Below are positions 12,536 through 39,322 of a stretch of DNA of 64,000 nt, one piece after another. The notes beneath the pieces were generated by a model. That model did not search any database, had not been told where the DNA came from, and was given only the letters and a program-made list of their open reading frames with translations. Made by a program: the position numbers and the translations under genes. The stretch spans positions 974 to 64,973 of the forward strand of contig JAWAEU010000006.1 of assembly GCA_038891055.1 (NCBI GenBank). The letters are read 5' to 3'. Position 1 is the first letter of the stretch, and each line of letters opens with the position of its first letter. Source of the stretch: Candidatus Anstonellaceae archaeon (GTDB taxonomy: Archaea > Micrarchaeota > Micrarchaeia > Anstonellales > Anstonellaceae).

Positions 12536-12559
12536 AAGTAGTAGATGAAAAATGGGAAG

Positions 12560-12673: not shown

Positions 12674-12792
12674 TGCAAACACCTCTTTTTTGGTTAAATA
12701 ATAAACAGAAAAATTTTTAAATCTATTTAAAGCAGCAAATTTCAAACAAATAAAACAAAATAATTAAATAAATAAGGGAATAATAAAAAATT

Positions 12793-12978: not shown

Positions 12979-12987
12979 GGTAAAAAG

Positions 12988-14745: not shown

Positions 14746-14805
14746 AAATAAATTCCAAAATTAAAATAAAGCTTATCTTTTAAATCAAAAATAGGGGTGT
14801 AAACT

Positions 14806-15066
14806 ATGAGCAGTATAAAAAAAGTTTTAATTATCGACGGTAAAGAACATTTTATAGAAGTAAATTCTAGCCTGGAACTAAATGAGATAGACATAACGGC
14901 TACAGAGCCTCTAACAAATAAAGTGATACATATTAGTCTCAACTCAATTTTAAGTCCAAAGAGAGAAATGTTAGATATTCCTCCAAAAAACTTAGAAGAG
15001 AGATCAAAAAATTTATTTGAAAGAGAAGAAGACAATACAAATGTTATAAACGAGATTTTTGGCTAA
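14806..15066 (+). CDS. Hypothetical protein (86 aa)
   Basis: GGGGTG SD before the ATG; fills the gap between glmS and the HAD gene. Confidence 0.55.
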   Translation: MSSIKKVLIIDGKEHFIEVNSSLELNEIDITATEPLTNKVIHISLNSILSPKREMLDIPPKNLEERSKNLFEREEDNTNVINEIFG

Positions 15067-21344: not shown

Positions 21345-24300
21345 TTATTTATTTTCCCAATAGCAATAATACAAAAATGGACTATAAGAAAGAGAGGGTG
21401 GATTAGAAGGACTACATGACATATCACTACTATAATTTTCTACTTTAACTTTACCACAGTTAGTGGTGTTTGCACCAAAGTGTGGGTAGACCACCTCCTC
21501 TGCATCATATGAAAGAATTGGGTGAGAAAAGAAAGTATAGTAATTTTCTGAGTCTTTTGTAGTTTGATTTAAGCAACATTTTTCATTTAGCATCCCTAGT
21601 ATAGTACCAAAGTCTGGGTTTGTAAATAATTCCTCCATGCTTTCTATTTCTAATTTTTTAACCTCTGTGAAATATTTTGATGAAGAAGGGATATAATAAC
21701 AAACTATCTTTTTAGAGCTAAATTTCTCTTCGCATAAATTATTTTTACAATAAGTAATAGAGATATAATTCCTTGGACATTCCTTTCCTGGGCAACTAGA
21801 ACCATCTTCGCAATCAGATTTACATAATGAAGGGTCAGATGAAGGACAATTTACACAAAGTTCAGATGCAGATTTGTTTTGAGCATTTACTAAAAGAGTT
21901 GAAACATCTGCAGAAAATTGTAAGTATGAAAGAGAGCCATTAACTAAATTTATAAATGGTTGATCCTTTAGTTCTGAAGTGCTATATACAATATTTTCTG
22001 GCTGTTCAAATAGAGAAGGTAATAGAATACCGATCACTCCGCTTAGTGTTAGTTTATCCTCTATTAAAAAGAGCATATCAAAAAATAAAGGATCCATATA
22101 TGAACTCTGCCTAAAGTATGTGTTTTTGTCGATTCTTAATTTCCACAAAGTTGGCTTTCCTAGATGTATTAGAATTTGTCTTGACAACTCAGCTGCTTTT
22201 TTGACAGTAGAGAGATAATAAGCTGATTTTTCTTTTTCACTAGAGAGGCGAGGAGAATAAGAAAGATCTAAATTTAAAACAATCACATCTACACTCTTTA
22301 ACTTAGCCTCCGAAGCTTGATCTAAGATAGGTGGAAAACCTATGTTTTCCTCTGTAGGGAATTTTATACCAAAGTAACTATAGAGGGAAGAATTTAGATT
22401 ATTTGGAGATGTAAAATAAATTTCTGAAATATTGGTGTCATTTTTTATTTTAATAATTTGCTCGTGTTCTAGTGCTAAAATACAACTTGGGCATAAATTC
22501 CTAGCATTGCTAATCCTAAAATATGCATTAGAAGAAGTAAGAGTATCTAGAATTGAGATCACTGCACTGTGTTTTGAATTTAAAAACAAAAATAAGAAAT
22601 CTGGAAGTGTTTTTACACTACACCTTGCGATCCACTTAACACATAAGCCTTCACTATTTGTTTCTTTACAATAATAGTTTAAATCACCTACACAATAAGG
22701 ATTATCTTCTGGCAGCTGATCTAATTCTCTTTCAAATACGACAGTATTGCCTCCCATTGAAATACCAGCTTTAGAATATTCTTTTAGATCTAAAACAACT
22801 ATTACATTGTTTTCTAAATAATTATGAATTTTAGAAATCAAATAGTTAAAATCTGGAATGGTTGAAGGAGAAGAATCAGGAAGATTTACAACAAAAGGAT
22901 TTGATGGAAGAAATGAATAAAGATTACTATTACATTTACAATTACCAAAATTAACAAAACAGTTAGAAGGACAGTACGAAATTGGAGTGCTATTTACTTT
23001 TTGATATGCTAGAGTTACAAAAGTACCACAACTATCACAAACTCCATAAGAGCGAGTTTTGAGAATATCCAAATTTTCTTCTTTTTTACACTTCCCCAAG
23101 TTTCTAATAACCCACATCTTGTCAAATAAAAATTCTCCTTTTTCTTCTTCCATATAATAGGGATGGAAAGAGAAAGGAGTAACATATTGCTCTATTAAAC
23201 TGTGGTTTTGTAGTGGTATTTTTTTAATAGAGATCTCTAAAATATCAAAGGTAGGATCATTAAAATTGTTAATATTATCTGTAGCTTTAAGGTCACATTT
23301 TTCAATAAAGTCAAATTTTTGTTTTAGATCACTAAAACTAACATTTCTAGAAGAAATTATTATTGTTTTTTCAGCGCCCTCGGTGGAAACTAATTGAAAA
23401 GGTGGCACTAAAACAAAGGCTCTTCTCCACTCCCACCTCATCTCGTCATTTCTATCATTTTGATTAGAAAGCCTGCTTAACTTAGAAGACAAAATTTCAA
23501 TATTGTCTTTCCACACAACCCAATCTTGTGGACCTAACATGCCATTTTTACAGCTTGGTTGTGCCGTATTATTGTTTTTATCTCTACAGATTTTATCTTT
23601 AGAATCAAAAAAGTAATTGTTTGGACAACTTGGTACAACTATTTTGTTAAAATTATTATCAATACACCCATATTCAGAAACTTTTTTTACAATATTTGCA
23701 AATTCTACCTGTTGTTTTTTTCCATCTATAGTCTTTTTATATTTATTAAACTCATCAAAATCATATACTCCCCAATCCCCATCCCAGCTACTCTCTCCCC
23801 TGACTGTTGCACTTGTATATCTCTTATCAAGTAAAAATAAATAATTTTTGCCATAATCATAATAAGCATAAAGATCATATGTTGTAGGATTATATTTACA
23901 CAATACTACTGGTTTTTTTTCAAAGTTTGAAAATAAGTTACAGAGATTTAGACCTGTTTTGCATTCTTCGTCCTCTATCGATCTATCAGATGGGCACTCT
24001 AAAAATGCGTCCTTACAAGAATTAAAAAAAGAACAATTACAGGAAATAGAACTATTATCATTCAAAAAGCAGCTTCCCCTAAGATATTGGCTCTTTATAC
24101 ATCTTGAAGAAAGACAATCGTTGTCTGAAAGACATTCAAATACCTTTGCACCTTCAGGACCAATTCCTTTTTCTCCAGTTTTTCTATAGTAATCCTTTGC
24201 TTCTTCAGGGTATTCTCTCATTAAAGCTGAGACATAAACAGAAGGATCTAAATAATAATGCTCTAGAGATTCTCCTCTTATATTTGTAGGGGGTAGAACA

Positions 24301-25319
24301 TTTATTTTTTTAAATTCAAGTTCTTTAAATAATTCCTTGTTAAAGATTTTAGAACAGAAATTAAAACATAGAATTTTTGAATAATCAGAACTTTTTGGAA
24401 AAGAAATAGATGGGTTGGACATGCAAAAGTAATGAGATTGATTTTCTGAACAAAAATTTAATGGTGCTTTAAAATTATTTTGAAAAACTTTTAGTTTTTT
24501 TAAGCCCCCTCCATAAAATTCAAGGTAATTAAAAAATCTATCCACAACTGCCTCTCCTCCAAAAGACCTAGTACAAAAAACATCTGAAGGTGGAAAATAA
24601 TATCTTGCTACTTCAAAATCTGAAAAAGAACCTAAAAATCCAATTCTTAAATTATTTACTAACCAATTCTTTTCTGTTAACAAACCCATAGTAGACTCAT
24701 TAATATATCTAAATTCACAAACTTTTCCAACTAAGCCTTTGTCTACTTCAAAAATAGAACTCTTAGTACCTCCAGAAGAAGACTTGTATGAATTTTCTAA
24801 TTTGTTAGTTTCATCAGGAGAAAATGAAAACTCCTTTTTTATTTTTTGCTTCTTTTCTCCACACATAAAAATTTTACAATCATTTTGTATACAATTAAAA
24901 CTTGAAACATTTACACAGATAGGATAGGTTATTCTTGGATTTGAAAGAGAATAACAAGTATTTTTTTCATCTTCATTAGTGCAATTTGCCTTATCAAAAT
25001 TACAATTTTTTGAGCAATCATTTGGTCTTATTGGATTTGAAGAGCCGGCGTATAAAATTTTATTTTTGTTTTTATCTAAAACTTCTCCGGAGGATTTGTT
25101 GAAATACTTACATTCTATACCATCAAAGTCCCCACACTCAATCATTTCAAATAAGTCAGAAGTGCCTTCAATCGGATTGGGAGAAAGAGAACAAGAATAT
25201 GTTTCATTAGACTGATAACAACATTGAGCTTCGATCAAATTTTTATTTGGGTTGATAGTACAACCTAAGAGAAACATTAGAACAAAAATTAAAAAAAGAG
25301 TAGAAAAGATTCTTATCAT
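21345..25319 (-). CDS. Large Cys-rich secreted lipoprotein-like protein (1324 aa)
   Basis: N-terminal hydrophobic stretch ending FLLGC; numerous cysteines; GAGGTG SD; last gene of the membrane-protein operon. Confidence 0.75.
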   Translation of the reverse strand: MIRIFSTLFLIFVLMFLLGCTINPNKNLIEAQCCYQSNETYSCSLSPNPIEGTSDLFEMIECGDFDGIECKYFNKSSGEVLDKNKNKILYAGSSNPIRPNDCSKNCNFDKANCTNEDEKNTCYSLSNPRITYPICVNVSSFNCIQNDCKIFMCGEKKQKIKKEFSFSPDETNKLENSYKSSSGGTKSSIFEVDKGLVGKVCEFRYINESTMGLLTEKNWLVNNLRIGFLGSFSDFEVARYYFPPSDVFCTRSFGGEAVVDRFFNYLEFYGGGLKKLKVFQNNFKAPLNFCSENQSHYFCMSNPSISFPKSSDYSKILCFNFCSKIFNKELFKELEFKKINVLPPTNIRGESLEHYYLDPSVYVSALMREYPEEAKDYYRKTGEKGIGPEGAKVFECLSDNDCLSSRCIKSQYLRGSCFLNDNSSISCNCSFFNSCKDAFLECPSDRSIEDEECKTGLNLCNLFSNFEKKPVVLCKYNPTTYDLYAYYDYGKNYLFLLDKRYTSATVRGESSWDGDWGVYDFDEFNKYKKTIDGKKQQVEFANIVKKVSEYGCIDNNFNKIVVPSCPNNYFFDSKDKICRDKNNNTAQPSCKNGMLGPQDWVVWKDNIEILSSKLSRLSNQNDRNDEMRWEWRRAFVLVPPFQLVSTEGAEKTIIISSRNVSFSDLKQKFDFIEKCDLKATDNINNFNDPTFDILEISIKKIPLQNHSLIEQYVTPFSFHPYYMEEEKGEFLFDKMWVIRNLGKCKKEENLDILKTRSYGVCDSCGTFVTLAYQKVNSTPISYCPSNCFVNFGNCKCNSNLYSFLPSNPFVVNLPDSSPSTIPDFNYLISKIHNYLENNVIVVLDLKEYSKAGISMGGNTVVFERELDQLPEDNPYCVGDLNYYCKETNSEGLCVKWIARCSVKTLPDFLFLFLNSKHSAVISILDTLTSSNAYFRISNARNLCPSCILALEHEQIIKIKNDTNISEIYFTSPNNLNSSLYSYFGIKFPTEENIGFPPILDQASEAKLKSVDVIVLNLDLSYSPRLSSEKEKSAYYLSTVKKAAELSRQILIHLGKPTLWKLRIDKNTYFRQSSYMDPLFFDMLFLIEDKLTLSGVIGILLPSLFEQPENIVYSTSELKDQPFINLVNGSLSYLQFSADVSTLLVNAQNKSASELCVNCPSSDPSLCKSDCEDGSSCPGKECPRNYISITYCKNNLCEEKFSSKKIVCYYIPSSSKYFTEVKKLEIESMEELFTNPDFGTILGMLNEKCCLNQTTKDSENYYTFFSHPILSYDAEEVVYPHFGANTTNCGKVKVENYSSDMSCSPSNPPSLSYSPFLYYCYWENK

Positions 25320-25333: not shown

Positions 25334-26473
25334 TCATAAATTTTTAGAAATAAAATGCAATAGATAAGTACTATCGGCTGATAGAAAATTTGCTAAGAAA
25401 TTTATAAATATTACAGTTATTGCTAGAGATAAAAAGGGGTAAAAAAAAGTTCCCATAGAAACTTGGACTATAAATTCTTCTATATCTGAAGAAAAAATAA
25501 TACTAGAATCATTTTCATTTGATTCAAAGGAAGAAAATTGTGCAAATGGCCCAAACTTTGCAAAGCAAATATTATTTATTACATCATTTTTAGTTGGAGG
25601 TTGGGGGGTTTGTACAACTTTAATTAATGAAGGTTGAATGAAAATATATGCTATTGGAAAAATAAAGTAAAAACCTATAGCTACAGCTATAAATAGACTA
25701 CCAATTCCTCTAAGGGGGGGAAATAGTCTTAGCAATAAACCTACTGGCAAAAAAAACGACAGGAGATTTTGCTCTAGATATGTTACAAAAAAGTATTGCG
25801 CTACTAAAGAGATAGAAAGAGAAGCCAACCTATTTGCAATATAATGATAACTCTCAATTTCTCTATAAACACCTTCCTCCCATATTTTACAAGATTGCCA
25901 ACCTACATAAGATTTACATTTCGAACCTTCTGTTTCTTTTACCATATTTGCGAGATATGCTGAGAGATAAAGTACATTAGATGCTTCTAAGTATTCTGAA
26001 ATTTTACATTTTATTAAAGTAAATGGTCCTGCCTGTTGATCCCATAATTTAATTTTTTGATCTTGACAAGAAAAAACAGCTGAGGAAGGCAAAAAAAGAT
26101 CCTGAATAAAAATAAAACCTGTGTTTAATAAATAAACAAAAGCTACTATTCCAAAAGCGGTTGCCGTTGTTTGATAGAATTCAGAAATTGCAAATCTTTT
26201 TACATTTTCTGCATCAAAAGCCTTTGCTAACATATAAATTATGACGTTTGCAAAAAAGCAAATGGCAACTACAATAGCTGAAAATTTTATCCAATAAAAT
26301 TCATCAGAATAATTAGATTGTTTGTACCAATTTACATTAAAGAGTTTAAAGTCTTTAGCTGAAGTAGTATTAGACTTCTGGAGCCACTCCCCCCAATCCT
26401 GAGAATATAAAATTCCTCCGAACAGAAGGAAGAATAAAGAGAATTTAAGCAAGATATGCAAGTTTTGAAACAT
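25334..26473 (-). CDS. Polytopic membrane protein, paralog 6 of the tandem family (VirB6/CedA-like candidate)
   Basis: Start moved to ATG 26473 after GGTGGTGAT; motifs YMLAKAF..ENVKRFAISE and LPVGLLLRLFPPLRGIG..FIA..IGFY..FP. Confidence 0.75.
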   Translation of the reverse strand: MFQNLHILLKFSLFFLLFGGILYSQDWGEWLQKSNTTSAKDFKLFNVNWYKQSNYSDEFYWIKFSAIVVAICFFANVIIYMLAKAFDAENVKRFAISEFYQTTATAFGIVAFVYLLNTGFIFIQDLFLPSSAVFSCQDQKIKLWDQQAGPFTLIKCKISEYLEASNVLYLSAYLANMVKETEGSKCKSYVGWQSCKIWEEGVYREIESYHYIANRLASLSISLVAQYFFVTYLEQNLLSFFLPVGLLLRLFPPLRGIGSLFIAVAIGFYFIFPIAYIFIQPSLIKVVQTPQPPTKNDVINNICFAKFGPFAQFSSFESNENDSSIIFSSDIEEFIVQVSMGTFFYPFLSLAITVIFINFLANFLSADSTYLLHFISKNL

Positions 26474-29400
26474 CAATATCACCACCTAAAATTGAAGCAA
26501 GATCTCTTACAAATGAAAGCACTGCTAGCAAAATTATCGAAGGTATAAAAAATGCTAAAATAAAGTTGATTGCAGAAAGACCAATATAAATATTTAAATT
26601 AGGGCTAAAACTTTCTTTTGACTTTGGAAATATTGGCTGCAGGGTTTTTTTATCTTCACCATACTTAAATATAGCATCACTATTTGGAAAAGTATCTTTT
26701 GTAAATGAGCCGACTTCTACAAGGTCAGCTAAATAGGAAAATTTATTAATGATGAAGGAATCGATTTTAATTCTGTTGATGGTAGAGGAATCTTTACAAA
26801 CATCATCAGAATTAAAAACTAGACAATGAATTGCTAACTTTGTGTGTATATTTTCTAATAACAAACCATATAATGCATAGCCAAATGGGAAGAGAATATA
26901 AAAGCCAATTCCAATTGCAATCATAGCTGCGCCTACATTTTTCAAAAAAGGCATGCACCTAAAAAATAAACCTACTGGTAATAAAAATATAATTAATCCA
27001 GAAGAAGAAGAGAGGAAAAATAATAAAAAGTAGTGCGTAAGAACATTGAACAAATAAAAGTTATTCAAATTAAGTAGAAAGTTAAAAACAGCCATATAAT
27101 TATAGGAAAAAGAATGAGGATTTTCATTTTGACCAAAAGTCATTTGAGCAGATTTTCTAATAATCTCTACTATTATGCTTTCTCCTGAATATGTATAGGC
27201 AGAGCCAGAAATATGGAAATAGGCAATATCTCTTCTGAGAATTATGATAGTTGAGTGGATTCTTTCTGATAGGTAATAGAGAGTATTTTGAGCAAACTCA
27301 GCTATTGAAGTGTCCATGTGCACTGTTTTTAGAGGTTCTAATCCAAAAAGATTTGAAATTGAAGAAATATTGACATATTTTTCACAATTTAAAACTAATA
27401 GTTGCCCAACTAAAACTAAAAATACCCCTAACAAAATTACTTCTGTAATTTCTCTTTTTGACCATTCCAACAATCTTGGATTAGAAAAAAGGTTTCCGAT
27501 CATAAATGCTATTGCAATAACAAAAACTATAGATGCAATACCAACTAAAAAGAATTTATAATACTGTGAAGTTATAACTTCTTTTTCAGAACAAAAAGAT
27601 TGAGGGGTTTGAGGAACAAAAACGTCTTTTGAATAAAGTTTAATGATTAAAAAGTCTGAAAAAGTGAATGTTTTGTGAGTTACAGAATCTAAAACCTTCC
27701 CTCTAACTTTTAATAGGCAACCCTTTTCTTTAAATTTAACAACTAACTTTAGATAGTCTTTGGTTTTTTCTACTAGCTTCCCTTCACATCCTCCTCCCGA
27801 AGTGATTGGAACTATATAAGAATCAAAATCGTAATCCCTTATATCCTGTGGAGTTAGAAAAACAAAATTTATATCGATATTTTTATTGTCATCTAAAAAT
27901 AAACGACTATTTTTCTCTAAATCTTTTTGTTTTTCACTATCTAATTGCTGCCCACCTACCAAAACTTTATCTATTGCCAAAATAGGACGCTCCAATGCAA
28001 ATTCAAAGGACTTATAAACACCTTTTTTGCTGTCTGTAAATGGATAAACTAAAACACTTAATTGTTTTATATCATAATAGGTATCTAAAAAAATATAATA
28101 AGGAAATCGATCAGGCACAATAAAATTAGTAAAATCAACTGTTTCTCCGTTAAATAAAGTTGCTCTTACTTCAATAACAGCTTTTGGTGAATTTTCTAAA
28201 TTTTTTATTTTGATAATTATATATTCATTCTCTTTTATTTTGGAATTTGGAACCATAAATGAAAGAGCACGGCCTTCCTTTTTGGAACTCTTATAAATAT
28301 CAGCACTAAACTTAATGGGACCAATACATGGACCATTATAAATTTTAATAGTTTTATTCTCAAAAATAACAGAAGAATCCAATGGCTCACTGCCTGCTTT
28401 TAGAGTAAAAATTAATTTATCTTTGTCCCCATTTGGACAAATTGAAGAAGTATTTAAAAGTAAAGACACATTAACAAAATTTGGAGAGAAATAGTCGCTA
28501 TTAGAAATTAGAGGATATTGAGGATTAGGAGTAAATAGCCCACTGGTACAATTCTCACTTGTACAGTTCCACTTATATAAAAAAGTAGTTTTTCTATCAT
28601 TAGAATCAATTACTTCTAATTCTCCCATCAAATAAAAGCCTGTTGAAAAATTTGTAGGCCTCATTGAACGTGGATTTGATGCGTTTGCCTCGAAAAATAT
28701 TCCCCTCTCCCTACTAATCCTAATATCATAAGAAAGATCGTAAATTCTTAATAATTGATATCCTCTCTGACAAGAGAAATTGTATGACAAATCCCCATTC
28801 GACCAATTTATTCTAAAAGGTGAATAGGATGCATTTAGCGTAACAGTTAAATTTAAGTCTAATCCAACTTTCTTATCAGTGTTTCTATCTGAGCTTCCAT
28901 TTCCCCTAAAGAGTAGCGAAAACAACTCTGGATCACAGCTAGAGTTATCAGATCGATATGTTGTATTACCATTTATAACAACTACTCCCCTACAATAAGA
29001 GCCATTGTTTATTTGTATTTCAAATGGTAAATTTATAATTTGAGTACTTAATTCGTCATCATCTCTCAAATTTATTTTAGTTCTACAAAAATTAATGTTA
29101 TTTTCTATAAGAGAGATGTTTGGTGGATAATGCTCAAATTTGTATTTTTTTACTACTAGAGGGAAGTATTGGCTTGCTGTGCCTTTAGTTATATTTAATC
29201 TATAGATCAAATAGATTTCATCAGAAATTGGAGAAATTATTTTGGTGAAATTATCATAAGGGTCAGATAAATAGGCAAAAGGAATTATTTTACGACTGTC
29301 GGCTTCCACAATTACATAGCACAAATTTTGCCTAAACCTCTGATTACAAAATACTAATTTAGAACGAGAATCTAAATTTGGAGATTCAGATAGAGAAATT

Positions 29401-29633
29401 TCTGAAAAATTAAAAATGCAAGGATCCTCTGGATTTGATGGGCAATCCAAAACTAAAAATCCATAATAAGAGGGGGAAATTTTATTGAAGCTCTCCACAC
29501 TTCCTTCAGCTAAATTATCTGGATCTGGAGGATTAGAAGAATTATAAAAGTAAACTAGAGGTGGAGTGAGAGGGGGAGGTACTTGCGCAACAAACACTCC
29601 CAAAAATAATATTAAAAAAAATAATTTTTTCAT
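26445..29633 (-). CDS. Polytopic membrane protein, paralog 5, with a ~690-aa N-terminal extracellular region
   Basis: Signal peptide; FMIGNLFSNPRLLEWSKRE; LPVGLFFRCMPFLKNVG..MIAIGIGFY..FP; LGGDID at the C-terminus. Confidence 0.75.
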   Translation of the reverse strand: MKKLFFLILFLGVFVAQVPPPLTPPLVYFYNSSNPPDPDNLAEGSVESFNKISPSYYGFLVLDCPSNPEDPCIFNFSEISLSESPNLDSRSKLVFCNQRFRQNLCYVIVEADSRKIIPFAYLSDPYDNFTKIISPISDEIYLIYRLNITKGTASQYFPLVVKKYKFEHYPPNISLIENNINFCRTKINLRDDDELSTQIINLPFEIQINNGSYCRGVVVINGNTTYRSDNSSCDPELFSLLFRGNGSSDRNTDKKVGLDLNLTVTLNASYSPFRINWSNGDLSYNFSCQRGYQLLRIYDLSYDIRISRERGIFFEANASNPRSMRPTNFSTGFYLMGELEVIDSNDRKTTFLYKWNCTSENCTSGLFTPNPQYPLISNSDYFSPNFVNVSLLLNTSSICPNGDKDKLIFTLKAGSEPLDSSVIFENKTIKIYNGPCIGPIKFSADIYKSSKKEGRALSFMVPNSKIKENEYIIIKIKNLENSPKAVIEVRATLFNGETVDFTNFIVPDRFPYYIFLDTYYDIKQLSVLVYPFTDSKKGVYKSFEFALERPILAIDKVLVGGQQLDSEKQKDLEKNSRLFLDDNKNIDINFVFLTPQDIRDYDFDSYIVPITSGGGCEGKLVEKTKDYLKLVVKFKEKGCLLKVRGKVLDSVTHKTFTFSDFLIIKLYSKDVFVPQTPQSFCSEKEVITSQYYKFFLVGIASIVFVIAIAFMIGNLFSNPRLLEWSKREITEVILLGVFLVLVGQLLVLNCEKYVNISSISNLFGLEPLKTVHMDTSIAEFAQNTLYYLSERIHSTIIILRRDIAYFHISGSAYTYSGESIIVEIIRKSAQMTFGQNENPHSFSYNYMAVFNFLLNLNNFYLFNVLTHYFLLFFLSSSSGLIIFLLPVGLFFRCMPFLKNVGAAMIAIGIGFYILFPFGYALYGLLLENIHTKLAIHCLVFNSDDVCKDSSTINRIKIDSFIINKFSYLADLVEVGSFTKDTFPNSDAIFKYGEDKKTLQPIFPKSKESFSPNLNIYIGLSAINFILAFFIPSIILLAVLSFVRDLASILGGDIDVSKLAYLA

Positions 29634-29634
29634 A

Positions 29635-30738
29635 TTAAGACAACCTTGATAAAATTGATAAATCTATTTCCAAACCTAAGCCATGGGCAATTGCTGAAGA
29701 GAAGGAAAGAGTGAGAGAAAGAGCTAAAAGTGGAATGAAGATGGATTTTAGAAGTACAAAGCTTAGAATTTTATCTGAATTGCTATTAAGATAATTTAAA
29801 ACAAAATTAGCAGTGTTTGGTATATCCAAGGAATTATAACTTTTTGGATCACATGAGACTGAATCTGGAATAGAATTTTCTAAGTCAGCATTCTGAAGAG
29901 TTATAGAATTTCCCTTTATTATTTTATGAAAATAAGAGCCATAATAGACATTATAATAATCCAGCAAAATTAAAAGAGAGGTGGGGAAAACAAAATAAAA
30001 TGAAATACAAAGAGAGACTAAAAATATACCAACCTTTCTGGTGAGATTAAAAAATGCTAAAAATAACCCTATTGGAAATAAGATACAGATTATTTGATTT
30101 GCAAAAATATTCAAGAAAAATTTAGTAAAGTAAATGCCAAAAGAAGCCGTAGAGATTGCAGTATAGAGCATATTTAGTGGTCCTCGAAGAGAAGAAAAAG
30201 TAGAACATACTCCAATACCAAAACCATTTCCATAGAAATTAAAGTAATAACTCTTAGAAGATTCAATTGCTATTGACTCTGCAAATTTATCTAACCTGTC
30301 ATTTAAAACTTTTAGGAGTTTATTATTTTCCTCTACTAATATAAATGCCTTTTGCTGTACAGTTATATTCTCCTGACTGACCTTTAGAGATTTGATATCA
30401 ATATAATTATAATTACTACTAAATCTGTTGCTCCATCCACTTGGATCTAAATTGAATGACTTAGCCAAATTTTTAGAAATAGGATTGAAAGACAATAGAA
30501 CAAAGACTAATATTAAAACCAAAATTGCCAAACTCTCGATTTCTTTTATTGCTAAGAACTTTAAATCTTGAAAATTAAACAAAGACCCTATAATCAAAAG
30601 AATTGCTATTATAGAAATTGCTATTGAGATTGAAACAAAGAGAGAGTTAAATAAACAGCTATTTTTAGGTGCATAATACTGAGCAAAAAGCAAATTTGAT
30701 AAAAATAAAAACAAAAATAAAAATCTGCTCGATCTCAT
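29635..30738 (-). CDS. Polytopic membrane protein, paralog 4
   Basis: IIGSLFNFQDLKFLAIKE; FPIGLFLAFFNLTRKVG...S..ISFY..FP; LGLEIDL at the C-terminus. Confidence 0.75.
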   Translation of the reverse strand: MRSSRFLFLFLFLSNLLFAQYYAPKNSCLFNSLFVSISIAISIIAILLIIGSLFNFQDLKFLAIKEIESLAILVLILVFVLLSFNPISKNLAKSFNLDPSGWSNRFSSNYNYIDIKSLKVSQENITVQQKAFILVEENNKLLKVLNDRLDKFAESIAIESSKSYYFNFYGNGFGIGVCSTFSSLRGPLNMLYTAISTASFGIYFTKFFLNIFANQIICILFPIGLFLAFFNLTRKVGIFLVSLCISFYFVFPTSLLILLDYYNVYYGSYFHKIIKGNSITLQNADLENSIPDSVSCDPKSYNSLDIPNTANFVLNYLNSNSDKILSFVLLKSIFIPLLALSLTLSFSSAIAHGLGLEIDLSILSRLS

Positions 30739-33700
30739 TTAAATCAACTTAAACAAGCCTGGGATTTCTATATCTCCACCTAAAAATATCGAAGTGCTTC
30801 TTATAAATGAGAGTAAAATCACAATAGAAAATGATGGTAGGATGATTGAAGGAATTAACAAAAGTCCAATTCTTATCCATCCAGTTTGAGTATAAAGCCC
30901 TTCTGCAGAAGTTGCAAAATTTAAAAGGTTTGACAGACTTACCCCCCCACTAGAACTACAGATATCACAATCTTGTCTAACATAAGGTAAATACTGGCAC
31001 TCTCTTTTACAATTTTCTATGCAGCCTTCGCAAGGATCTTTCTCAAAAGAGAAAATTCTACATTGCTTAGCATGAAAATCATCACATGAATAATCTACAT
31101 TCTCAATAAGTTCATTGAGGCTCTTTTCTTTTCCTTCCGGATCACAACCATAAGAAAGCTGGTTGTCTAAAAGTGAGGGGTCGATTCTACAGCGAATTGG
31201 GCAACCAATTGCTTTTTTAGATGGAATTGCACAGCTCTGACTAGAGGAAGATGGATTTACTTTTATAAAACATTTATCACAATTCAAACCACTTAAAATA
31301 AAATAGAGAGAACCCTTAGAAGGATCTAAACCAAATATTCTATAAACAACTGGACATAACTGGCAATTATCATCTGACTTTATAGTTTGTTTTGTTACCC
31401 CACCAACCTTTGTTGAAAAATCTACAGATGTGTCAACTACATTATGAAAAGCTAAGCCTGGCATTGCCCTTGCATTATAGGAGGCAAAACAGATTGGATT
31501 AATAGCACTAATCACAACTGACCTTCCACCATAATTAATTGAATAATTTCCACAAAAGACATAATTTGGATTTGCATTAGTATCGATAGTTCCACATTCT
31601 CTATAATCAGAATATCCAGAAGCTGCGATTAAATAATCCAACCCTGCATATTTTGAACCTGGGCTACAGTTGTAGGGCTGATAGCCAAGCTCTAAGCTAA
31701 AGTTTATATAAAGTCTTTGTCCTTGTTGAGTATAACTACAATAATCTTCCCACCAATGATTTTGTGCTACAGTTCCATCCGGTTTAGTATCCCCTCTTCT
31801 ATATGTTGTAGAATTATACACTACGATAGATTTATTACAAAGTGGGTTAGAATGACTCTTGTTCAGAGGAATGGAGTCAATTCTCACCCAATAATTCCCT
31901 CCTCTCAGTTGATTACAACTATAAGCCTCGTTTTGGCAATAAGATAAATCATTAGACCTTATTAAACCATTACAAAATGGGTCACAGTTATGAGAGGGAT
32001 TGGAGCTTTCAAATTTTAATGTGAAATTACCACATTCCACGAGATTGAGGTTTTTTAGCTCATCATACCTACAAGAGTAAGGACAAGCACTTCCATTAAT
32101 CATCGCTCTATCTTTAGAATTACTCTCGATATATTCGCCACACATCTCAAATCCTCTCTGAGAGGAAGAAGGAATACTTAAAATAGGATAGCAAGCAAAG
32201 TTTTCTAAATTTGCAGGATTAGAATTTAAGGCAGAAAGAGAAGGGAAATAAGAGCTATCCACTCCCTTTGGTAAATAGTAAGAGGAGGAATAATTTAAAA
32301 CCACCAATAGGGTGTAGTTATTATCATAAAATTGTTTAGTTCTTTGGTCAAAGTTACAGTTTGAAATACTAAAATCTATTCTTGAATATCTGTTAGAGAT
32401 ATCTAATAGAGTAGCAAATTTGGGCCAAGTTAAAATAAAACATTGGGCTCTACAAAATGGAGAAGAGCAAAATTTTTGCACATCTTTATCAAGAGTACAG
32501 TCAATGGATACAAATGGATTTGATTTTACTCTAACAGAATTTTGGTCATCATTCCAAGTATTTAAAAAAACAAATCTACTATCTCTTGCCAGAAAGTCTG
32601 GACAAAAAACTTCATCTTTTAGAGATTGATATGCTATTCTAACAGGGGAAATAGATGGGACTTTTGTGCCAGCGTATAAATTATAACCTTGGCAATTTTC
32701 ATAATAACCTTGGCTATTGTACGAAGTACATTCTATATACCTAGAAGGATCAAAATGACAATCATGTATAAGAAAAGATTTAGAATAAAAAGCTGCAAAT
32801 AGAGGATTGTTTGTATCAATAGCAATTTTGGCTATTGAGGAGGGATTTAAAAATCTACAAGAAGGTGGACAGCGAATACAATTTAATAAATTTTCATCAG
32901 TTATTTTTCCATTAGAAAATTTAGGGGGAGGAGAACAAATAGAATAGTCCATATAAACTGAGTTTAGAAATTTGCTAACATTTATCTTACAGCTGTTGGG
33001 GCATCGATTGCAAGCCTTTGAAAACATTCCCTCTTCACAATATTTCTCAAATATCGGGTCTTTATATTCTTTAGAATTTTCATCAAAATAAAGCCTGCAA
33101 TCCAATGGGCAGACATTTGAATTTCCACTATCTCTTAAATTTCTAATACTTAGAGGAAGACCACACAATTCAGTACAACTATCAGAAGCTTCTAGTGGAG
33201 AATAAAACATACAAATTGGCAAATCTGAGGAATCTCTATAGTTTAGGCAATCTTGGCAATTCTTACATTCTACTTTATTTTTAAATACCAATTCTATTTT
33301 TCCATCGTTTAATTTTGTATATACCCTGCAAACTGATGGACAATCTTTACATTTTTCTGCACATTCAAATCGATTAGTAGTTAAAGAATTAGAATTCTTG
33401 GGAACTTTTGTTGTAATTCCGATAGAGTTTTTATCGGCAGGAGAAAACGATTTAGAATAATCGATTTCTGGATAGCGATATTTACAGGAGATAGGACAAT
33501 CTCTACAATTAGAAGGATTGCTACAGTACATATCATTTGACTCATAATAAGAAGTATAGTTTTCTAAACCCATCGCTCTAATAAATTTGCAGGCATGAGG
33601 TAGATTGTTACATGCAGTTTCATTGCAAACCTTCAAATCAGTTGGCAAAAACCTGCAGCCCTCTGGGCAGTTTTTAGAATCAGCAACTTTTATTTTTCCT

Positions 33701-34785
33701 ATAACTTTTTGTTCGTCTTCGTCCTCTACAAAACAGGGCTGAATTCCTTGACTAAGTAAATACTCGTATAGATCTTTATCTTTATTTTTCTCATCCTCTG
33801 ACTTTTTTTCTATTAATTGTATTAAATCATAGTAAGAAATAAAGGATGAAGGCATATAAATTCCAGCAGGGTTAATAGAGGTATTATAAGCTATAGGCGG
33901 ATTTAAATCGCACTCTTTTGGACAAATTGATTCATTTTGATCTACTCCTTGGGAGCCAAAAATTGCACCTCTAAAAGTAAACCAAGAGATTAAATAAGTT
34001 AGAGGCCAAATTAGAAATAAACCAATTCCAATAGCTATTAACAAACCACCTAATCTTCTAGTGACAAATAAAGTTCTAAATAATACCCCTATAAAAATTA
34101 AGAATGGACCAAAAACAGGTGCTATAAAATTCAAAAATGCTTTTTGTGCTAAGAGTGAGATTAAAAAGGAAGATAAAAATTGCCCTTCTGTTGTTTTTAT
34201 TTCAACATCTAACCTTTTAAATGCTGCAGGTCTGCTACTTTCTTGATATCCAAGATCCCATATATTCATAGAAGAACCTCTGGAAAAAAATGTTTCTCGT
34301 CCTGCTTCTATAGATTCTTTCAAATTAACTTTTAGGGAGTTATCTGTTAATTTAATTAGAGTGTCCAGATAACAATTAGAATATTCCATATACCGAGGTA
34401 TATCTTTATTATAAATATAATTAGAGGGACAGGGGGAAACAAGAAAATTAGAAGAGTTGATTATAAGCTGATCTAAAAATAAGATTACGCCTAAAATAGT
34501 TGTGATTAAAATTGAAGTTACAAAAAGTTGCCCTATTTCAGTTTTTATTAAAACTTTTATCTCTGGGATATCAAAAAAAGAGGCTCCAAAATAACCTATT
34601 ACTAAAAGAGCTATAGATATAGATAAAAATAAAATTAAAAATACAAAAAAGTTTGATAAAATTAAAGAAATTGGGTTATAACTTTTTCCAAGATAACTTA
34701 CAAAATCTAAATAACTTTTTTCTAAATCATTCTGAGAAAAACAATATCCAATCAAAAATAAAAATAAAACTATTAGTTTTTTCAT
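30739..34785 (-). CDS. Polytopic membrane protein, paralog 3, with a ~1000-aa Cys-rich insertion
   Basis: ATG 34785 preferred (GTG 34797 is the alternative); IGVLFRTLFVTRRLGGLLIAIGIGLFLIWP; CPxxC(R/K) repeats; LGGDIE at the C-terminus. Confidence 0.75.
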   Translation of the reverse strand: MKKLIVLFLFLIGYCFSQNDLEKSYLDFVSYLGKSYNPISLILSNFFVFLILFLSISIALLVIGYFGASFFDIPEIKVLIKTEIGQLFVTSILITTILGVILFLDQLIINSSNFLVSPCPSNYIYNKDIPRYMEYSNCYLDTLIKLTDNSLKVNLKESIEAGRETFFSRGSSMNIWDLGYQESSRPAAFKRLDVEIKTTEGQFLSSFLISLLAQKAFLNFIAPVFGPFLIFIGVLFRTLFVTRRLGGLLIAIGIGLFLIWPLTYLISWFTFRGAIFGSQGVDQNESICPKECDLNPPIAYNTSINPAGIYMPSSFISYYDLIQLIEKKSEDEKNKDKDLYEYLLSQGIQPCFVEDEDEQKVIGKIKVADSKNCPEGCRFLPTDLKVCNETACNNLPHACKFIRAMGLENYTSYYESNDMYCSNPSNCRDCPISCKYRYPEIDYSKSFSPADKNSIGITTKVPKNSNSLTTNRFECAEKCKDCPSVCRVYTKLNDGKIELVFKNKVECKNCQDCLNYRDSSDLPICMFYSPLEASDSCTELCGLPLSIRNLRDSGNSNVCPLDCRLYFDENSKEYKDPIFEKYCEEGMFSKACNRCPNSCKINVSKFLNSVYMDYSICSPPPKFSNGKITDENLLNCIRCPPSCRFLNPSSIAKIAIDTNNPLFAAFYSKSFLIHDCHFDPSRYIECTSYNSQGYYENCQGYNLYAGTKVPSISPVRIAYQSLKDEVFCPDFLARDSRFVFLNTWNDDQNSVRVKSNPFVSIDCTLDKDVQKFCSSPFCRAQCFILTWPKFATLLDISNRYSRIDFSISNCNFDQRTKQFYDNNYTLLVVLNYSSSYYLPKGVDSSYFPSLSALNSNPANLENFACYPILSIPSSSQRGFEMCGEYIESNSKDRAMINGSACPYSCRYDELKNLNLVECGNFTLKFESSNPSHNCDPFCNGLIRSNDLSYCQNEAYSCNQLRGGNYWVRIDSIPLNKSHSNPLCNKSIVVYNSTTYRRGDTKPDGTVAQNHWWEDYCSYTQQGQRLYINFSLELGYQPYNCSPGSKYAGLDYLIAASGYSDYRECGTIDTNANPNYVFCGNYSINYGGRSVVISAINPICFASYNARAMPGLAFHNVVDTSVDFSTKVGGVTKQTIKSDDNCQLCPVVYRIFGLDPSKGSLYFILSGLNCDKCFIKVNPSSSSQSCAIPSKKAIGCPIRCRIDPSLLDNQLSYGCDPEGKEKSLNELIENVDYSCDDFHAKQCRIFSFEKDPCEGCIENCKRECQYLPYVRQDCDICSSSGGVSLSNLLNFATSAEGLYTQTGWIRIGLLLIPSIILPSFSIVILLSFIRSTSIFLGGDIEIPGLFKLI

Positions 34786-34789
34786 ATTT

Positions 34790-35749
34790 CTACCCACTAA
34801 AAAATCCTTTTAAACCTTTAAATACCCCTATTGTTGCAGTAATCACAAGAACTAAAACTAAATTTGGTATGAAGACAGCTAAAATTGTGAGAAATGCTAC
34901 AAAATTCAACGAATCATTTATTGTGCTATCTCCAAGATTTATTATATTGTTGAGTGCAGAAGGATCTGAAGTTTGGAAAGTTTTTTCAATAGAGACAAAG
35001 CAAAAAACATAAGTTAGTGGAATAAAAATATAGGATGAAATAGAAAAAGCTATTATAAAATCACCTGCATCTCTCAATAGAGGGAAAATCCTCAAAAAAA
35101 TTCCTGCAGGTAAAATAAAAGCACTTAGCATAACAAAAAGATTTTCTACAACAAATTTTTGTGCATAAATTGAAGCCAAAAGAGGGACTAAATAAGAATT
35201 TAGGATTTCCATATAGCTTGCCCACTCTCTTTTTCCTGCCAAAAAATATACTCCAAAATTTCCTGAAAATTGCGCAATAGAATCTGCATTTGCATACAAT
35301 TCCATAGAGCTAAATTGGTTATTAAAAGATTCTTTTAACAGATATATTGATTTTGAAGTAGTAAGAGAAATAATCTTATCAAAATAATTTAGAATATAAA
35401 ATATTGGATCTTGTTTAATTGGTAAAAAGAATGAAGCAGCAAGACAAGAAAAATTAATTGCTCCTATAATTGTTAGTATTAAAATAACTGTCCAAAATAG
35501 AGTTAATCCTTCTGTTTTAGACCACATTAACAAATAAGGATTGTGTAACATATTACCTAATAGATAAGAAATAACCACTAATGAGATTACTAAAGCTATT
35601 GCTGCTAAAATTTGAGAGTTTATATTAAATAGTTGATCTGTGGAGTATTTGAAACATGTTATTGGACCAACTAATAGATTATCACTAGATTGAATAGATT
35701 GACAAACTGATAGCCCAAACAAAATTAAAAATATAAAGTACTTTTTCAT
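34790..35749 (-). CDS. Polytopic membrane protein, paralog 2
   Basis: YLLGNMLHNPYLLMWSKTE; LPAGIFLRIFPLLRDAG.FIIA..I..Y.FIP. Confidence 0.75.
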   Translation of the reverse strand: MKKYFIFLILFGLSVCQSIQSSDNLLVGPITCFKYSTDQLFNINSQILAAIALVISLVVISYLLGNMLHNPYLLMWSKTEGLTLFWTVILILTIIGAINFSCLAASFFLPIKQDPIFYILNYFDKIISLTTSKSIYLLKESFNNQFSSMELYANADSIAQFSGNFGVYFLAGKREWASYMEILNSYLVPLLASIYAQKFVVENLFVMLSAFILPAGIFLRIFPLLRDAGDFIIAFSISSYIFIPLTYVFCFVSIEKTFQTSDPSALNNIINLGDSTINDSLNFVAFLTILAVFIPNLVLVLVITATIGVFKGLKGFFSG

Positions 35750-35751
35750 AT

Positions 35752-36984
35752 TTATAACAACCTCTGCAAGGCAAATAAATTTCCTTCTTGACCCAAAATT
35801 GCAGAAAATTGTTTACCTAAAACTATAGTAAATGTAAACTGCATTATAATACAACTAAAGCTTAAAAGAGCAACTAAAACCAAATTTGGCAATACAAATT
35901 TTACTAATGGAACATAAAAATCTTCCACAATTTGTTGTGGGGGAAATACCCCATATGACCTAATTCCATCTCCAATAATAGTTGGAATAATGGCCCTTAT
36001 TAAATTAATAACAGCTTGTATAAAACTTGCAATTGGTTTTCCTCTTATGATTGGGGAAAGAATATCCTGAGTCTTCGGCTCTGCCTCACCAGGAGGTATT
36101 GCGGGAAAGAGTAAATTGATAAGCTGTGCAATATCCTGGGCAGGAATAGCAGTATCCATAACATAGAAAGGGGAAAGAAGATAAGCCCAGGCTTCCAATG
36201 AAGAATAATCTGGAAGCTCGATATCTGGAAAATCTAACTTGTTTGAATAATCTACAAATTTTTTATCTTCTGCAAGCTTTATAGAATAGTCAAATAATGC
36301 TGAACTTAGATCTACAGAAAGAGGAAAAATGAAAATAAAAGAAAGAGTATAACCTAAAATAAATCCTCCTATTTTTTTTGTGAAAGGTATAAATCTTAAT
36401 AAAACACCTAAAGGCAAAAGAAAATTAAAACTCAAGAAAGCTAAAAATAAAACAATGTTAAAAGTACCTCTTATCAAAAGAATTAGAGAAAAACAAAAAT
36501 CTATTGCATACATTAATTGGCTTAATATTAGATTTGTACCATAAGAATAAGATTTTCCTTCAGTATAAGAATAAGCAAAAAAAGATAACCCAATAAGCTT
36601 ATTGGTAGATAACCCTGCTTGAAAATTATAATTAAAAGTACTAAATTTTGAAAAAAGAAAACTATTTTTTATTAAAATTGAGGATTGCTCTAATAAGTAG
36701 GATAAAATAGTTTTATTTGCTATTTTTGGGTAGGGAGGAGATCCAAAATTATAGGAATAAAATGAAAAGTCACCAAAACGACTTTCATTTACTTTAAAAA
36801 AGTTGAAGATAAAAATTATTACAATGCAGACCCCAAAGAAAAAAAATAGATCTGCTAATTCTTTTTTTACCCAAACTTTCAAAAAAGAAGAGGAAAAAAA
36901 ATTAGCAAATAAAAAAGCTATAGCTAAGATAAAAGTTGAAATAAGAGTACCGTAAATAATTGCAGAATATATATCAAAAAACAT
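35752..36984 (-). CDS. Polytopic membrane protein, paralog 1
   Basis: FLFANFFSSSFLKVWVKKE; LPLGVLLRFIPFTKKIGG..LG..L.F...FP; LGQEGNL at the C-terminus. Confidence 0.75.
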   Translation of the reverse strand: MFFDIYSAIIYGTLISTFILAIAFLFANFFSSSFLKVWVKKELADLFFFFGVCIVIIFIFNFFKVNESRFGDFSFYSYNFGSPPYPKIANKTILSYLLEQSSILIKNSFLFSKFSTFNYNFQAGLSTNKLIGLSFFAYSYTEGKSYSYGTNLILSQLMYAIDFCFSLILLIRGTFNIVLFLAFLSFNFLLPLGVLLRFIPFTKKIGGFILGYTLSFIFIFPLSVDLSSALFDYSIKLAEDKKFVDYSNKLDFPDIELPDYSSLEAWAYLLSPFYVMDTAIPAQDIAQLINLLFPAIPPGEAEPKTQDILSPIIRGKPIASFIQAVINLIRAIIPTIIGDGIRSYGVFPPQQIVEDFYVPLVKFVLPNLVLVALLSFSCIIMQFTFTIVLGKQFSAILGQEGNLFALQRLL

Positions 36985-36988
36985 AATA

Positions 36989-37564
36989 TCATGTTTGTGT
37001 TGTTTTGTTTATTTTTTTAAAATATACATCTACTAAATTTTCAAGTGCTTCATGGATGTTTAGAAGTTTTTTTTGTGGTAAAATATAGAGGCGATCAATT
37101 TCATATTGGTCTTCTATTTTTTTAATAAAATGCAACAAAACACTACCATTACTATTATAAAATGTGCTGGCTAGACTAAACAATACGCAAATATCATAAT
37201 AAATTAAAAACTGTAGCAATAACCTTGAAAATTCTTCTTCTGAATTTTTTATTTCAAGAAACAATTTTTCTATATTTTGAAAATCAGAATTTAGTGCGTA
37301 TTTTTTTATGTTTTTTAGATAATCTGGAAAAGATTGATCAAGATAAGAATATAAGTTAACAAAGATTTTTTTAAAAGATATTGTGGCATACTTTTTTAAA
37401 AAAGGTTTCCCCATAATAGAAACTAAAAAGTTACCTGAAGATAAAAATAAAAGCTTTTGTCTTTTTTGATTTTCTAACTCTAAATTTCTAATTGCATCTA
37501 ATAAATCTTTTTTTGACTTTTTTATAATCGAATTTTCCAACGAACTAAAATCCAAATCAAACAT
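36989..37564 (-). CDS. Hypothetical soluble helical protein in the membrane operon
   Basis: ATG 37564 (GTG 37579 is the alternative); no signal peptide; 4 bp from the next gene. Confidence 0.6.
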   Translation of the reverse strand: MFDLDFSSLENSIIKKSKKDLLDAIRNLELENQKRQKLLFLSSGNFLVSIMGKPFLKKYATISFKKIFVNLYSYLDQSFPDYLKNIKKYALNSDFQNIEKLFLEIKNSEEEFSRLLLQFLIYYDICVLFSLASTFYNSNGSVLLHFIKKIEDQYEIDRLYILPQKKLLNIHEALENLVDVYFKKINKTTQT

Positions 37565-37597
37565 ACTTCCTCGACCCACAATTACCTATTTAAAGAA

Positions 37598-39106
37598 TCA
37601 AAATGTCTTGTATTTATTTAAGGCATCCAAAGTTGCCTTATATAGAGAGTAATTAAATAATGGATCCTCGACTGCTCCGCTGCTTTGATTTACTAAATGA
37701 TTTATAAAATCATCCACACCTCTATTACCTGTTTTCAAGGCCGTCTCTCTTTTTGTAATTATGGTCAAAAGATCTTGTGTAAGACCTTTTCCTAATTGAA
37801 CAATAGTAGTTAATGCCCAAATTCCTAGTTCTTTTTTCCCTTCAGCTCCTTTATTTTGATTTAGGTTTTCAAGTTGTTTGTTTACTAAAGCTCCTATTTC
37901 TCTAACTGATTGATCTACTACTGAGTTAAGAATAGCGCCTCCCCCTACAGCAGCAGTATTTTTTAGATCTTTAACAAACTCTTTTGTAAAAAGGTTTTTA
38001 AAAAATGGGCCCTTTGTAAAAGGAGCCCTTGGAGTAAACTTTGACTTTCTTGGAGTAACCACAAAAGCAACCATATTAACCAGTCCTTTTATGCCTGCAA
38101 TTGTTCCAATATCTTTTGCTTTTTGTGTTATACTATTCTCTTCTTCGCCATCACTTTTTAATAATTTAAAACCACTAGAAATGGGATCCTTCAGCAAGCC
38201 CTGTGCTAAACCAATATATTTATTGACAGTAGGTGGTAATGATGAATTAGCAGTAGATTTTTTAGTATCCTCAAGAGGATTAGAATTAGAAGTATTAGAA
38301 TCTGATGTGGTTTGTTGATTTGATTGTGTGGCAGCTTCTTTAGAATCATTTTTTTTACCTCTCATAATATCTTTAGAATTCTTTATGTCCTCTGTAGCTT
38401 TGTCGGCTGAATCTACGACAGCCGTTGCAGTTTTTAAAACATTATTAATTTTACTTTCATTATCTTTTTGTTTTGACATGGGAGAATAATATAGCGTAGA
38501 AGAAAAATGCCTCGAGGGTAGATTTCTAGCAACTCCAAAATCAAAGAACATCAAAGGATTTCTACCCATAATAAAATTAGCTAAAAATATAATACCTGCA
38601 ATTATAGTGGAAAACCAACACAAATTAAAAGTTGCGTTTTGCTTTCTTGGTGTACAGAATTTTAACTGAGTAAATGACTTTGTATAGTTTTGAGAATAAT
38701 CTTGAGGTAAATTAGAGGGGAGAGAAGAGCGGCAGTAATTTTTTTGTAATGAAGGAGAGCTAGCGAGTGGTACAAATTCAGCCGAGAGAACATAACAAGT
38801 CTGAGCTGAAACATCAAGTTCAACTGCTGCTCTTCCTTCCTCATTAGTTACAACATAGCAAGAGAATCTTGAATCGTCAGATTCACTTTTTAGAGTTAGA
38901 AGAATAAAACCATGTTTTATTGGAATAGTTGGACCTACCAAAGAATCTCCTTTATTTTCTGCAAAAAGGTTTAAGTATACCTTTACCTTATCTCCATCCA
39001 ATTCATAATAAGATCTAATAAAAGAAGAATCGAGGGGGGGTTGGCATACTTGAGAAAAACTAAAATAAATAAAAAATAATAAAAATATCACCCCAACTTT
39101 TTGCAT
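37598..39106 (-). CDS. Signal peptide, extracellular domain, TM helix and cytoplasmic tail; first gene of the operon
   Basis: MQKVGVIFLLFFIYFSFS signal; four Cys in the ectodomain; TM WFSTIIAGIIFLANFIM followed by GRNPLMFFDF; S/T/N/K-rich tail. Confidence 0.7.
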   Translation of the reverse strand: MQKVGVIFLLFFIYFSFSQVCQPPLDSSFIRSYYELDGDKVKVYLNLFAENKGDSLVGPTIPIKHGFILLTLKSESDDSRFSCYVVTNEEGRAAVELDVSAQTCYVLSAEFVPLASSPSLQKNYCRSSLPSNLPQDYSQNYTKSFTQLKFCTPRKQNATFNLCWFSTIIAGIIFLANFIMGRNPLMFFDFGVARNLPSRHFSSTLYYSPMSKQKDNESKINNVLKTATAVVDSADKATEDIKNSKDIMRGKKNDSKEAATQSNQQTTSDSNTSNSNPLEDTKKSTANSSLPPTVNKYIGLAQGLLKDPISSGFKLLKSDGEEENSITQKAKDIGTIAGIKGLVNMVAFVVTPRKSKFTPRAPFTKGPFFKNLFTKEFVKDLKNTAAVGGGAILNSVVDQSVREIGALVNKQLENLNQNKGAEGKKELGIWALTTIVQLGKGLTQDLLTIITKRETALKTGNRGVDDFINHLVNQSSGAVEDPLFNYSLYKATLDALNKYKTF

Positions 39107-39213: not shown

Positions 39214-39322
39214 GGCCAAGATGGTGTAACGGCAGCACAAGGGATTGTGGAAGCCCTATGCTAAAATATTAGCAAAATGCTGCAAAACTCCCTTAGTCTG
39301 GGTTCAAATCCCAGTCTTGGCC
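39214..39322 (+). tRNA. tRNA-His(GUG) with a 37-nt intron (39251-39287) at 37/38 and a genome-encoded G-1
   Basis: Acceptor stem GCCAAGA/TCTTGGC plus C73; D arm GTGT..GCAC; anticodon stem AGGGA/TCCCT; T loop TTCAAAT; BHB helix TTGT/GCAA with bulges GGA and AAC; CCA not encoded. Confidence 0.93.

Follow-up and report, generated by a model that had tools for sequence, protein, structure and literature searches.

The window analysed here, a stretch of 64,000 nucleotides from Candidatus Anstonellaceae archaeon (contig JAWAEU010000006.1), is a low-GC (about 30%) segment of an archaeal chromosome, whose genes include both subunits of DNA polymerase D, NMD3, a DUF2070 protein, a DHH phosphoesterase, GlmS and CysRS. 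On its minus strand, between positions 25334 and 36984, lie six tightly packed genes that are true paralogs of one membrane-protein family, and to which we refer as the hexad; they are part of a series of nine co-directional genes running from 39106 down to 21345, with spacers of only a few bases or overlaps between neighbours. Almost none of the molecular parts with which DPANN archaea build their envelopes and trade material with other cells are known, and in this study we were concerned with what kind of system these genes encode. The six genes are listed below; A, B and C are the three sequence motifs shared by their products, and TM denotes a transmembrane helix.

35752-36984, minus strand: hexad position 1, 410 residues; lacks a signal peptide, the N-terminus being TM1 directly; motif A present, motif B at 36322-36417, motif C at 35767-35796; an extra insert of ~90 residues ahead of TM5.
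34790-35749, minus strand: hexad position 2, 319 residues, the most compact member; signal peptide, five TM helices, outside helical hairpin; motif B at 35018-35113, motif C degenerate.
30739-34797, minus strand: hexad position 3, 1352 residues; TM1 to TM4, a large Cys-rich outside insert, TM5; motif B at 34003-34098, motif C (LGGDIEIPGL) after TM5, at 30754-30783.
29635-30738, minus strand: hexad position 4, 367 residues; motif B at 29983-30078, with its first Arg replaced by Ala; motif C at 29650-29679.
26445-29633, minus strand: hexad position 5, 1062 residues; signal peptide, outside N-terminal domain, then the five-TM core; motif B at 26886-26981, motif C at 26460-26489.
25334-26485, minus strand: hexad position 6, 383 residues, the best conserved subfamily; motif B at 25655-25750, motif C degenerate.

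The initial annotation, made from the sequence of the window, had described these genes as six tandem minus-strand paralogs of DPANN origin, with motif B in all six, motif C clear in four and degenerate in two, and motif A as a further shared element, and each part of this description was borne out by our analysis. In an all-against-all BLASTP comparison every pair of the six proteins is co-linear (best value 1.5e-14) and all pairs match around motif B; multiple alignments of the six recover the three motifs with their order unchanged. A hidden Markov model (HMM) built from 68 members of the family matches exactly these six among the six-frame open reading frames (ORFs) of the window, with scores of 142-301 bits. 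The regular expression for motif B gives 6 matches in the six-frame translation of the window, one per gene, and 0 in 30 shuffles; the pattern for motif C, LGx[DE]x[DEN]xxxL, gives 4 matches against 0.27 in shuffles, the degenerate copies being those of the 383- and 319-residue proteins, while a loose pattern for motif A finds all six genes together with six spurious matches. Micrarchaeota/Anstonellaceae metagenome-assembled genomes encode the closest homologues, which are annotated as hypothetical and have 71% and 51% identity; both contigs share the gene content and order of the window as far as they extend. On the evidence of the orthologues, the 1352- and 383-residue ORFs probably begin at ATG codons located four codons inside the listed GTG starts (MKKLIV... 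and MFQNLH..., respectively).

It had also been proposed in the initial annotation that related genomes be surveyed for copy number and synteny. We scanned one genome per species with patterns derived from a six-sequence alignment of position 6, and recovered 58 loci, each labelled Micrarchaeota or 'uncultured archaeon'. With the family HMM applied to six-frame ORFs, exactly six tandem co-directional members in the same order were found in all of the 44 loci that have sufficient flanking sequence; where fewer than six members are present, the locus lies at or near a contig end, and the two loci that score seven do so on account of one split gene. When best hits between loci are tabulated by gene position, the resulting matrix is strongly diagonal (1160-1723 on the diagonal versus 12-229 off it), and thus the six positions correspond to six orthologous subfamilies in a fixed order. 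Internal gene junctions are of 10 bp or less in 193 of 220 cases, the median being -1 bp. In four genomes there are two hexads (locus pairs L014 and L050, L038 and L055, L021 and L061, L011 and L064), and two types can be recognized: in type I, as in the window, a large protein with a lipobox lies downstream, whereas in type II this protein is missing and a single-pass partner is often found divergently upstream. The correspondence between the two types by position is clear for 2, 3, 5 and 6 and noisy for 1 and 4; since the match is position for position, the set was duplicated as a whole. Overall, the six genes are six ancient, distinct subfamilies of one membrane-protein family.

According to the hydropathy profiles, five of the six proteins start with a predicted cleavable signal peptide that ends in xSQ, xAQ or xCQ, and five membrane helices follow. 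By combining signal peptides, the positive-inside rule and the positions of the cysteines, we derived a predicted layout for the common core in which the N-terminus is outside and TM1 leads through a short cytoplasmic turn with motif A (W-x-K-x-E) to TM2; an outside helical hairpin of ~90 residues with a small beta hairpin comes next, then TM3, a cytoplasmic turn with motif B (L-R-x-x-P-x-x-R-x-x-G), TM4 with an invariant Pro, a variable outside insert, TM5, and a cytoplasmic tail with motif C (LGxDIDxxxL). According to this layout the three motifs are all on the cytoplasmic side, while the variable parts of the proteins face outwards. An AlphaFold2 model of the 319-residue member, calculated with 68 relatives in the alignment, has a mean predicted local distance difference test (pLDDT) score of 86.9 and a predicted template modelling score of 0.79, and is all-helical except for one small beta hairpin; in the model of a compact position-3 orthologue the core is good and the Cys-rich insert uninterpretable. 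Across 345 members of the family the near-invariant residues (numbered as in the 319-residue protein) are E80 (91%), R220 (95%), R226 (93%), G229 (97%) and P244 (98%). Cysteines cluster in the predicted outside parts, and the large additions of positions 3 and 5 are all outside. The position-3 insert, ~1020 residues between TM4 and TM5 (nt 30898-33957), contains 72 Cys and ten motifs of the CPxxC[RK] type; the outside N-terminal domain of position 5 spans ~660 residues (nt 27594-29576), and this protein has 14 Cys within its first 680 residues and 21 N-x-S/T sites over its whole length. In position 6 the outside cysteines C140, C160 and C307 are invariant.

The extent of the family was determined by an exhaustive HMM profile search over 1.84 billion cluster representatives, which identified 2641 members at E<=1e-3 and 1650 at E<=1e-10; word-indexed protein searches reached the closest relatives only. 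All the names seen among the relatives are 'hypothetical' or 'uncharacterised', and they come from Micrarchaeota, 'Parvarchaeota' and Ca. Gugararchaeum, with one exception. This is a protein (P0162, RLG25809.1) deposited as 'Methanosarcinales archaeon' on an 11-kb contig; the label is likely due to mis-binning, and it would matter if it were real. Neither the six proteins (Pfam at E<=1, and NCBIfam) nor the 68 relatives (Pfam at E<=0.01) match a known family, no chain is found at a meaningful E-value when the family profiles are compared with the sequences of the PDB, a tblastn search of 72,556 plasmids returns no homologue, and literature searches for this gene cluster found no description of it in the library covered. 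By every comparison made here (Pfam, NCBIfam, PDB, Foldseek, BFVD and the literature) the family and its module are previously undescribed and match no known kind.

The remaining three of the nine co-directional genes flank the hexad on its two sides:

37598-39106, minus strand: single-pass partner, 502 residues; signal peptide, outside domain of ~140 residues, one TM helix, charged cytoplasmic tail.
36989-37579, minus strand: a mostly soluble protein of 196 residues, between the single-pass partner and hexad position 1.
21345-25319, minus strand: large secreted partner, 1324 residues with 63 Cys; lipobox-like signal LLGC, then a conserved CC pair.

Homologues of the large partner are encoded immediately downstream of the position-6 gene in 46 loci, which include 31 of the 44 six-member loci as well as truncated ones. 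They share the L-x-G-C lipobox-like signal, a CC pair 10-15 residues further on, and a content of 41-97 cysteines; comparison with Pfam and PDB gives no match. This family, to which for example the homologue at 11688-15572 in locus L013 belongs, has 35 invariant columns in total, mostly cysteines. One conserved stretch, FRFGVGxSFxDFExARYYFPxSDxFC...DRFxNY, in which R, G, P, D, D, R and Y do not vary, might be a site of binding or catalysis in this otherwise unknown fold. In 35 loci a member of the single-pass family accompanies the hexad; its gene either follows that of the large protein or lies upstream in divergent orientation. The members of this family have a signal peptide, an outside domain of ~170 residues, a TM helix carrying the motif GRNP(L/F)xxFDF, and a Lys/Glu-rich cytoplasmic tail of 800-1800 residues, the version in the window being short-tailed; the family has no Pfam match, and comparison of the long versions with Pfam and PDB likewise gives none. 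Homologues of the 196-residue protein are confined to the three closest loci, and for this reason we consider it a lineage-specific accessory gene or a fast-evolving one. Clustering of the other ORFs near the hexads yields no further family in more than 7 loci and no ATPase. The outer flanks are housekeeping genes, which differ between loci (PolD, NMD3, DUF2070, TBP, CysRS, proteasome genes).

A protein of ~190 residues with a single HKD motif, similar to phospholipase D (PLD; Pfam PLDc_2, E 1e-29), is encoded within about 1.5 kb downstream of 5 of the 12 type II hexads. This protein might act with the module, as a phospholipase or a nuclease, or its position may be a coincidence. The five genes are:

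L061, 17362-17928: PLD-like protein.
L066, 11770-12351: PLD-like protein.
L057, 11957-12577: PLD-like protein.
L064, 10949-11503: PLD-like protein.
L050, 12406-12972: PLD-like protein.

Some other features of the window are worth recording. A tRNA gene of 108 nt (39215-39322, plus strand; Rfam 51.7 bits, E 3.4e-08), which is long enough for an intron, is located between the start of the operon and a divergent gene at 39660; ARAGORN reports no tRNA in the whole window. The 372-residue protein encoded at 4969-6087 on the minus strand, with a DUF5885 match (E 4e-15) and a weak Dickkopf-like cysteine-rich region, is another Cys-rich protein, probably located at the surface. The gene for the NurA nuclease (8421-9446, minus strand) adjoins a 440-residue ORF (7086-8408, plus strand) without a Pfam match, at the place where the HerA helicase partner might be expected.

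These results can be interpreted in terms of assembly. The number of members fixed at six, the orthology specific to each position, the duplication of the set as a whole and the tight coupling of the genes, all of them properties of genes and sequences, strongly suggest that the six products form an obligate hetero-oligomer. In our favoured explanation, which we consider on balance probable, the six are the membrane base, with one copy of each, of a new envelope complex of the Micrarchaeota, whose role would be that of a conduit or hand-over platform. The subunits would assemble in the cytoplasmic membrane, most simply as a pseudo-sixfold ring, and this base would be extended outwards by the lipoprotein and the outside domains, and inwards by the charged tail of a partner. 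The conserved Glu/Arg/Arg/Gly/Pro set on the cytoplasmic face may hold the common fold and make a conserved inner rim; together with the acidic C-terminal tails of the subunits, this rim could provide a docking site for the lysine-rich tail of the single-pass partner, while on the other side of the membrane the disulfide-rich domains of positions 3 and 5 and the lipoprotein would form a cap towards the surface layer (S-layer). Material at the cell surface would be conducted or handed over passively or at the expense of an ion gradient. A purely structural role, as an anchor for surface proteins, is nearly as likely as that of a conduit. Concerning the partners of such an exchange, some lineages of Micrarchaeota are predicted to be less dependent on a host and reported to have near-complete lipid synthesis (PMC12892359); the module occurs in these lineages also, and therefore a general role in the envelope is favoured over a purely host-directed one. 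A more ambitious version of this proposal, in which the hexad, the lipobox protein and the single-pass protein make up an envelope-spanning channel of hetero-hexameric build, so far seen in Micrarchaeota alone and unrelated to type IV secretion, by which cells would trade lipids, metabolites or macromolecules across the S-layer, also with hosts, appears to us rather doubtful; if true, it would represent a new class of archaeal surface machine, gap-junction-like or Mce-like, with six different subunits.

Several considerations weigh against the envelope complex that we favour. The assembly of the six is deduced from comparative genomics, and ring, pore and cargo are all inferred. An enzymatic or flippase-type function, repeated in six specialised paralogs, would account equally well for the conserved residues, and neither an energy source nor a substrate-binding protein is linked to the hexad loci. 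The outside domains have no usable model (pLDDT below 50 in the AlphaFold2 prediction for the compact position-3 orthologue). Finally, the restriction to Micrarchaeota is derived from a pattern-limited scan of genomes and from few names, one member being labelled 'Methanosarcinales archaeon'.

The initial annotation had proposed a heteromeric channel of VirB6/CedA type; its heteromeric part is strongly suggested by the fixed six, their order and their coupling, while the kinship with VirB6, CedA and type IV secretion is not supported. According to that hypothesis the six would be channel subunits resembling VirB6/TrbL or CedA, in a machine that transfers DNA or protein by type IV secretion or in the manner of Ced. 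The general look of the proteins is indeed VirB6-like, as they are polytopic, helical and encoded by tandem paralogs with large added domains, and tandem VirB6 paralogs are known from the Rickettsiales. Moreover, chains of TrwI/VirB6 recur among the sub-threshold Foldseek matches (7o3v_G, E 0.95-4.3; 8rtd_L, E 1.6; 8rt9_F, E 1.7), a phage protein annotated as TrbL appears in BFVD at E 2.1, and the best single segment obtained with the profile-profile program hhalign pairs motif B with the GP...LLWxPTK loop of VirB6. All these scores are at the level of noise. In the Foldseek comparison with VirB6 that had been suggested at the outset, nothing in the PDB matches the model of the 319-residue protein below E 0.2, the TrwI/VirB6 chains being at E 0.95-1.6 with TM-scores of 0.23-0.31, and for the model of the position-3 orthologue the same chains are at E 1.7-4.3; over the two models (E 0.95-4.3) the root-mean-square deviation is 10.6-12.8 Å and the TM-score 0.10-0.31, which is not significant. 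The hhalign probability is 0.2% against TrwI alone and 0.4% against an alignment of seven VirB6 sequences (TrwI of plasmid R388 and six plasmid homologues), and the real comparisons, carried out with the whole family and with each subfamily, score 17.0-22.1, no better than the 17.3-22.8 of reversed-sequence controls. The Pfam profile of TrbL (PF04610) matches none of the six proteins or the 68 relatives, and similarity to CedA/TedA, probed indirectly through the Pfam and PDB profile searches, is likewise not detected. As for the genetic context, neither a VirB4-, VirD4- or CedB-type ATPase, nor a pilin or other type IV secretion gene, nor a small recurrent membrane protein like CedA1 or CedA2, is linked to the hexad, either in the window or at the loci surveyed, where the surroundings are chromosomal housekeeping genes. 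Because of the noise-level scores, the lack of a plasmid homologue and the lack of a type IV secretion or Ced gene context, we reject this identity, to which we would now assign next to no probability: in our reading the hexad belongs neither to the type IV secretion nor to the Ced systems.

Two other explanations deserve more weight than this one, although we consider both of them unlikely. The six might not be assembled together at all, and might instead be independent anchors that display surface domains, or independent enzymes or flippases, grouped by co-regulation. The outside domains are in fact large, lineage-variable, Cys-rich and adhesin-like, the invariant Glu/Arg/Arg on the side of the membrane could serve as a binding site for a lipid-linked substrate that carries a phosphate, and the contacts between subunits are putative. 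However, four of the six proteins in the window have almost no outside domain to display, and independent paralogs normally vary in number and order, which is the opposite of what is observed here (six in 44 of 44 loci, positional orthology, whole-set duplication, near-zero spacers). Alternatively, and with similarly low probability, the module could be a complex for the handling of lipids or other hydrophobic ligands, with TTYH-like subunits that have a cavity open to the membrane, in an assembly like that of MceA-F which moves lipids between the membrane and the surface or a host. This proposal draws on the agreement between the predicted layout and that of TTYH proteins (five membrane-spanning helices with the N-terminus outside and the C-terminus inside, a pair of helices between TM2 and TM3 and an insert between TM4 and TM5 that both face outwards, outside disulfides), on the presence of TTYH chains among the top sub-threshold Foldseek matches (7p54_A, rank 2, E 0.88; 7p5j_A, E 0.95), on the resemblance of six tandem paralogs in fixed order to mce operons, in which the ATPase is likewise unlinked, and on the PLD-like gene that adjoins 5 of 12 type II hexads. 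The TTYH scores are not significant, though (TM-score 0.09-0.22), no MCE or other lipid-transfer domain is matched in Pfam by the six proteins or their 68 relatives, and the module is present also in lineages for which near-complete lipid synthesis has been reported.

Two further candidates were considered and rejected. The published S-layer protein of Micrarchaeota is nearly free of cysteine and contains the S-layer domains TIGR01564/01567 (bioRxiv 10.1101/2021.04.28.441871), and differs in this from the hexad proteins, which may nonetheless have an anchoring role for the S-layer. The nanotubes seen in the ARM-1 co-culture do not explain the module either, because they originate from the host and not from the Micrarchaeon (PMC11329633).

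What emerges from this analysis is a nine-gene module, defined by six ordered subunits, two conserved partners and, in the window, one lineage-specific gene, which takes up ~18 kb, in a genome that is very small, and frequently occurs in two copies (four genomes with two hexads). It offers for further study a core fold predicted with confidence, a predicted topology and a set of invariant residues, and a tempting but wrong annotation as VirB6 and type IV secretion has been removed.

It is instructive to compare this module with known systems. TTYH proteins have five helices with the N-terminus out and the C-terminus in, outside helix pairs, disulfides, and a cavity facing the lipid (PMC8361169), and the hexad layout predicted from hydropathy, signal peptides, AlphaFold2 and outside cysteines is equal to that of TTYH1-3; this is an analogy only, as the Foldseek matches are at E 0.88-4.5 with TM-scores of 0.09-0.22 and no TTYH chain appears in the PDB profile searches. 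Furthermore, TTYH proteins are eukaryotic homodimers, whereas the hexad is a set of six paralogs. VirB6/TrbL (TrwI) and CedA are, like the hexad proteins, polytopic all-helical proteins of the inner membrane. VirB6 forms an oligomer at the base of a machine that spans the envelope, and tandem VirB6 paralogs with large extensions occur in some lineages; the hexad differs in its copy number fixed at six, its chromosomal location, and its occurrence only in genomes labelled Micrarchaeota or unclassified archaeon. The Mce system differs in that the hexad is archaeal and has no MCE domain, YrbE permease or MceG ATPase, as judged from Pfam and from the clustering of linked genes, and in that each hexad subunit has five membrane helices against one in each Mce protein. 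In Mce systems six paralogs give rise to one hetero-oligomeric envelope complex, accessory membrane proteins are encoded in the operon, and the ATPase is unlinked. In genetic logic, with six tandem paralogs in a fixed order, the MceA-F heterohexamer is the closest analogue of the hexad, again by analogy only.

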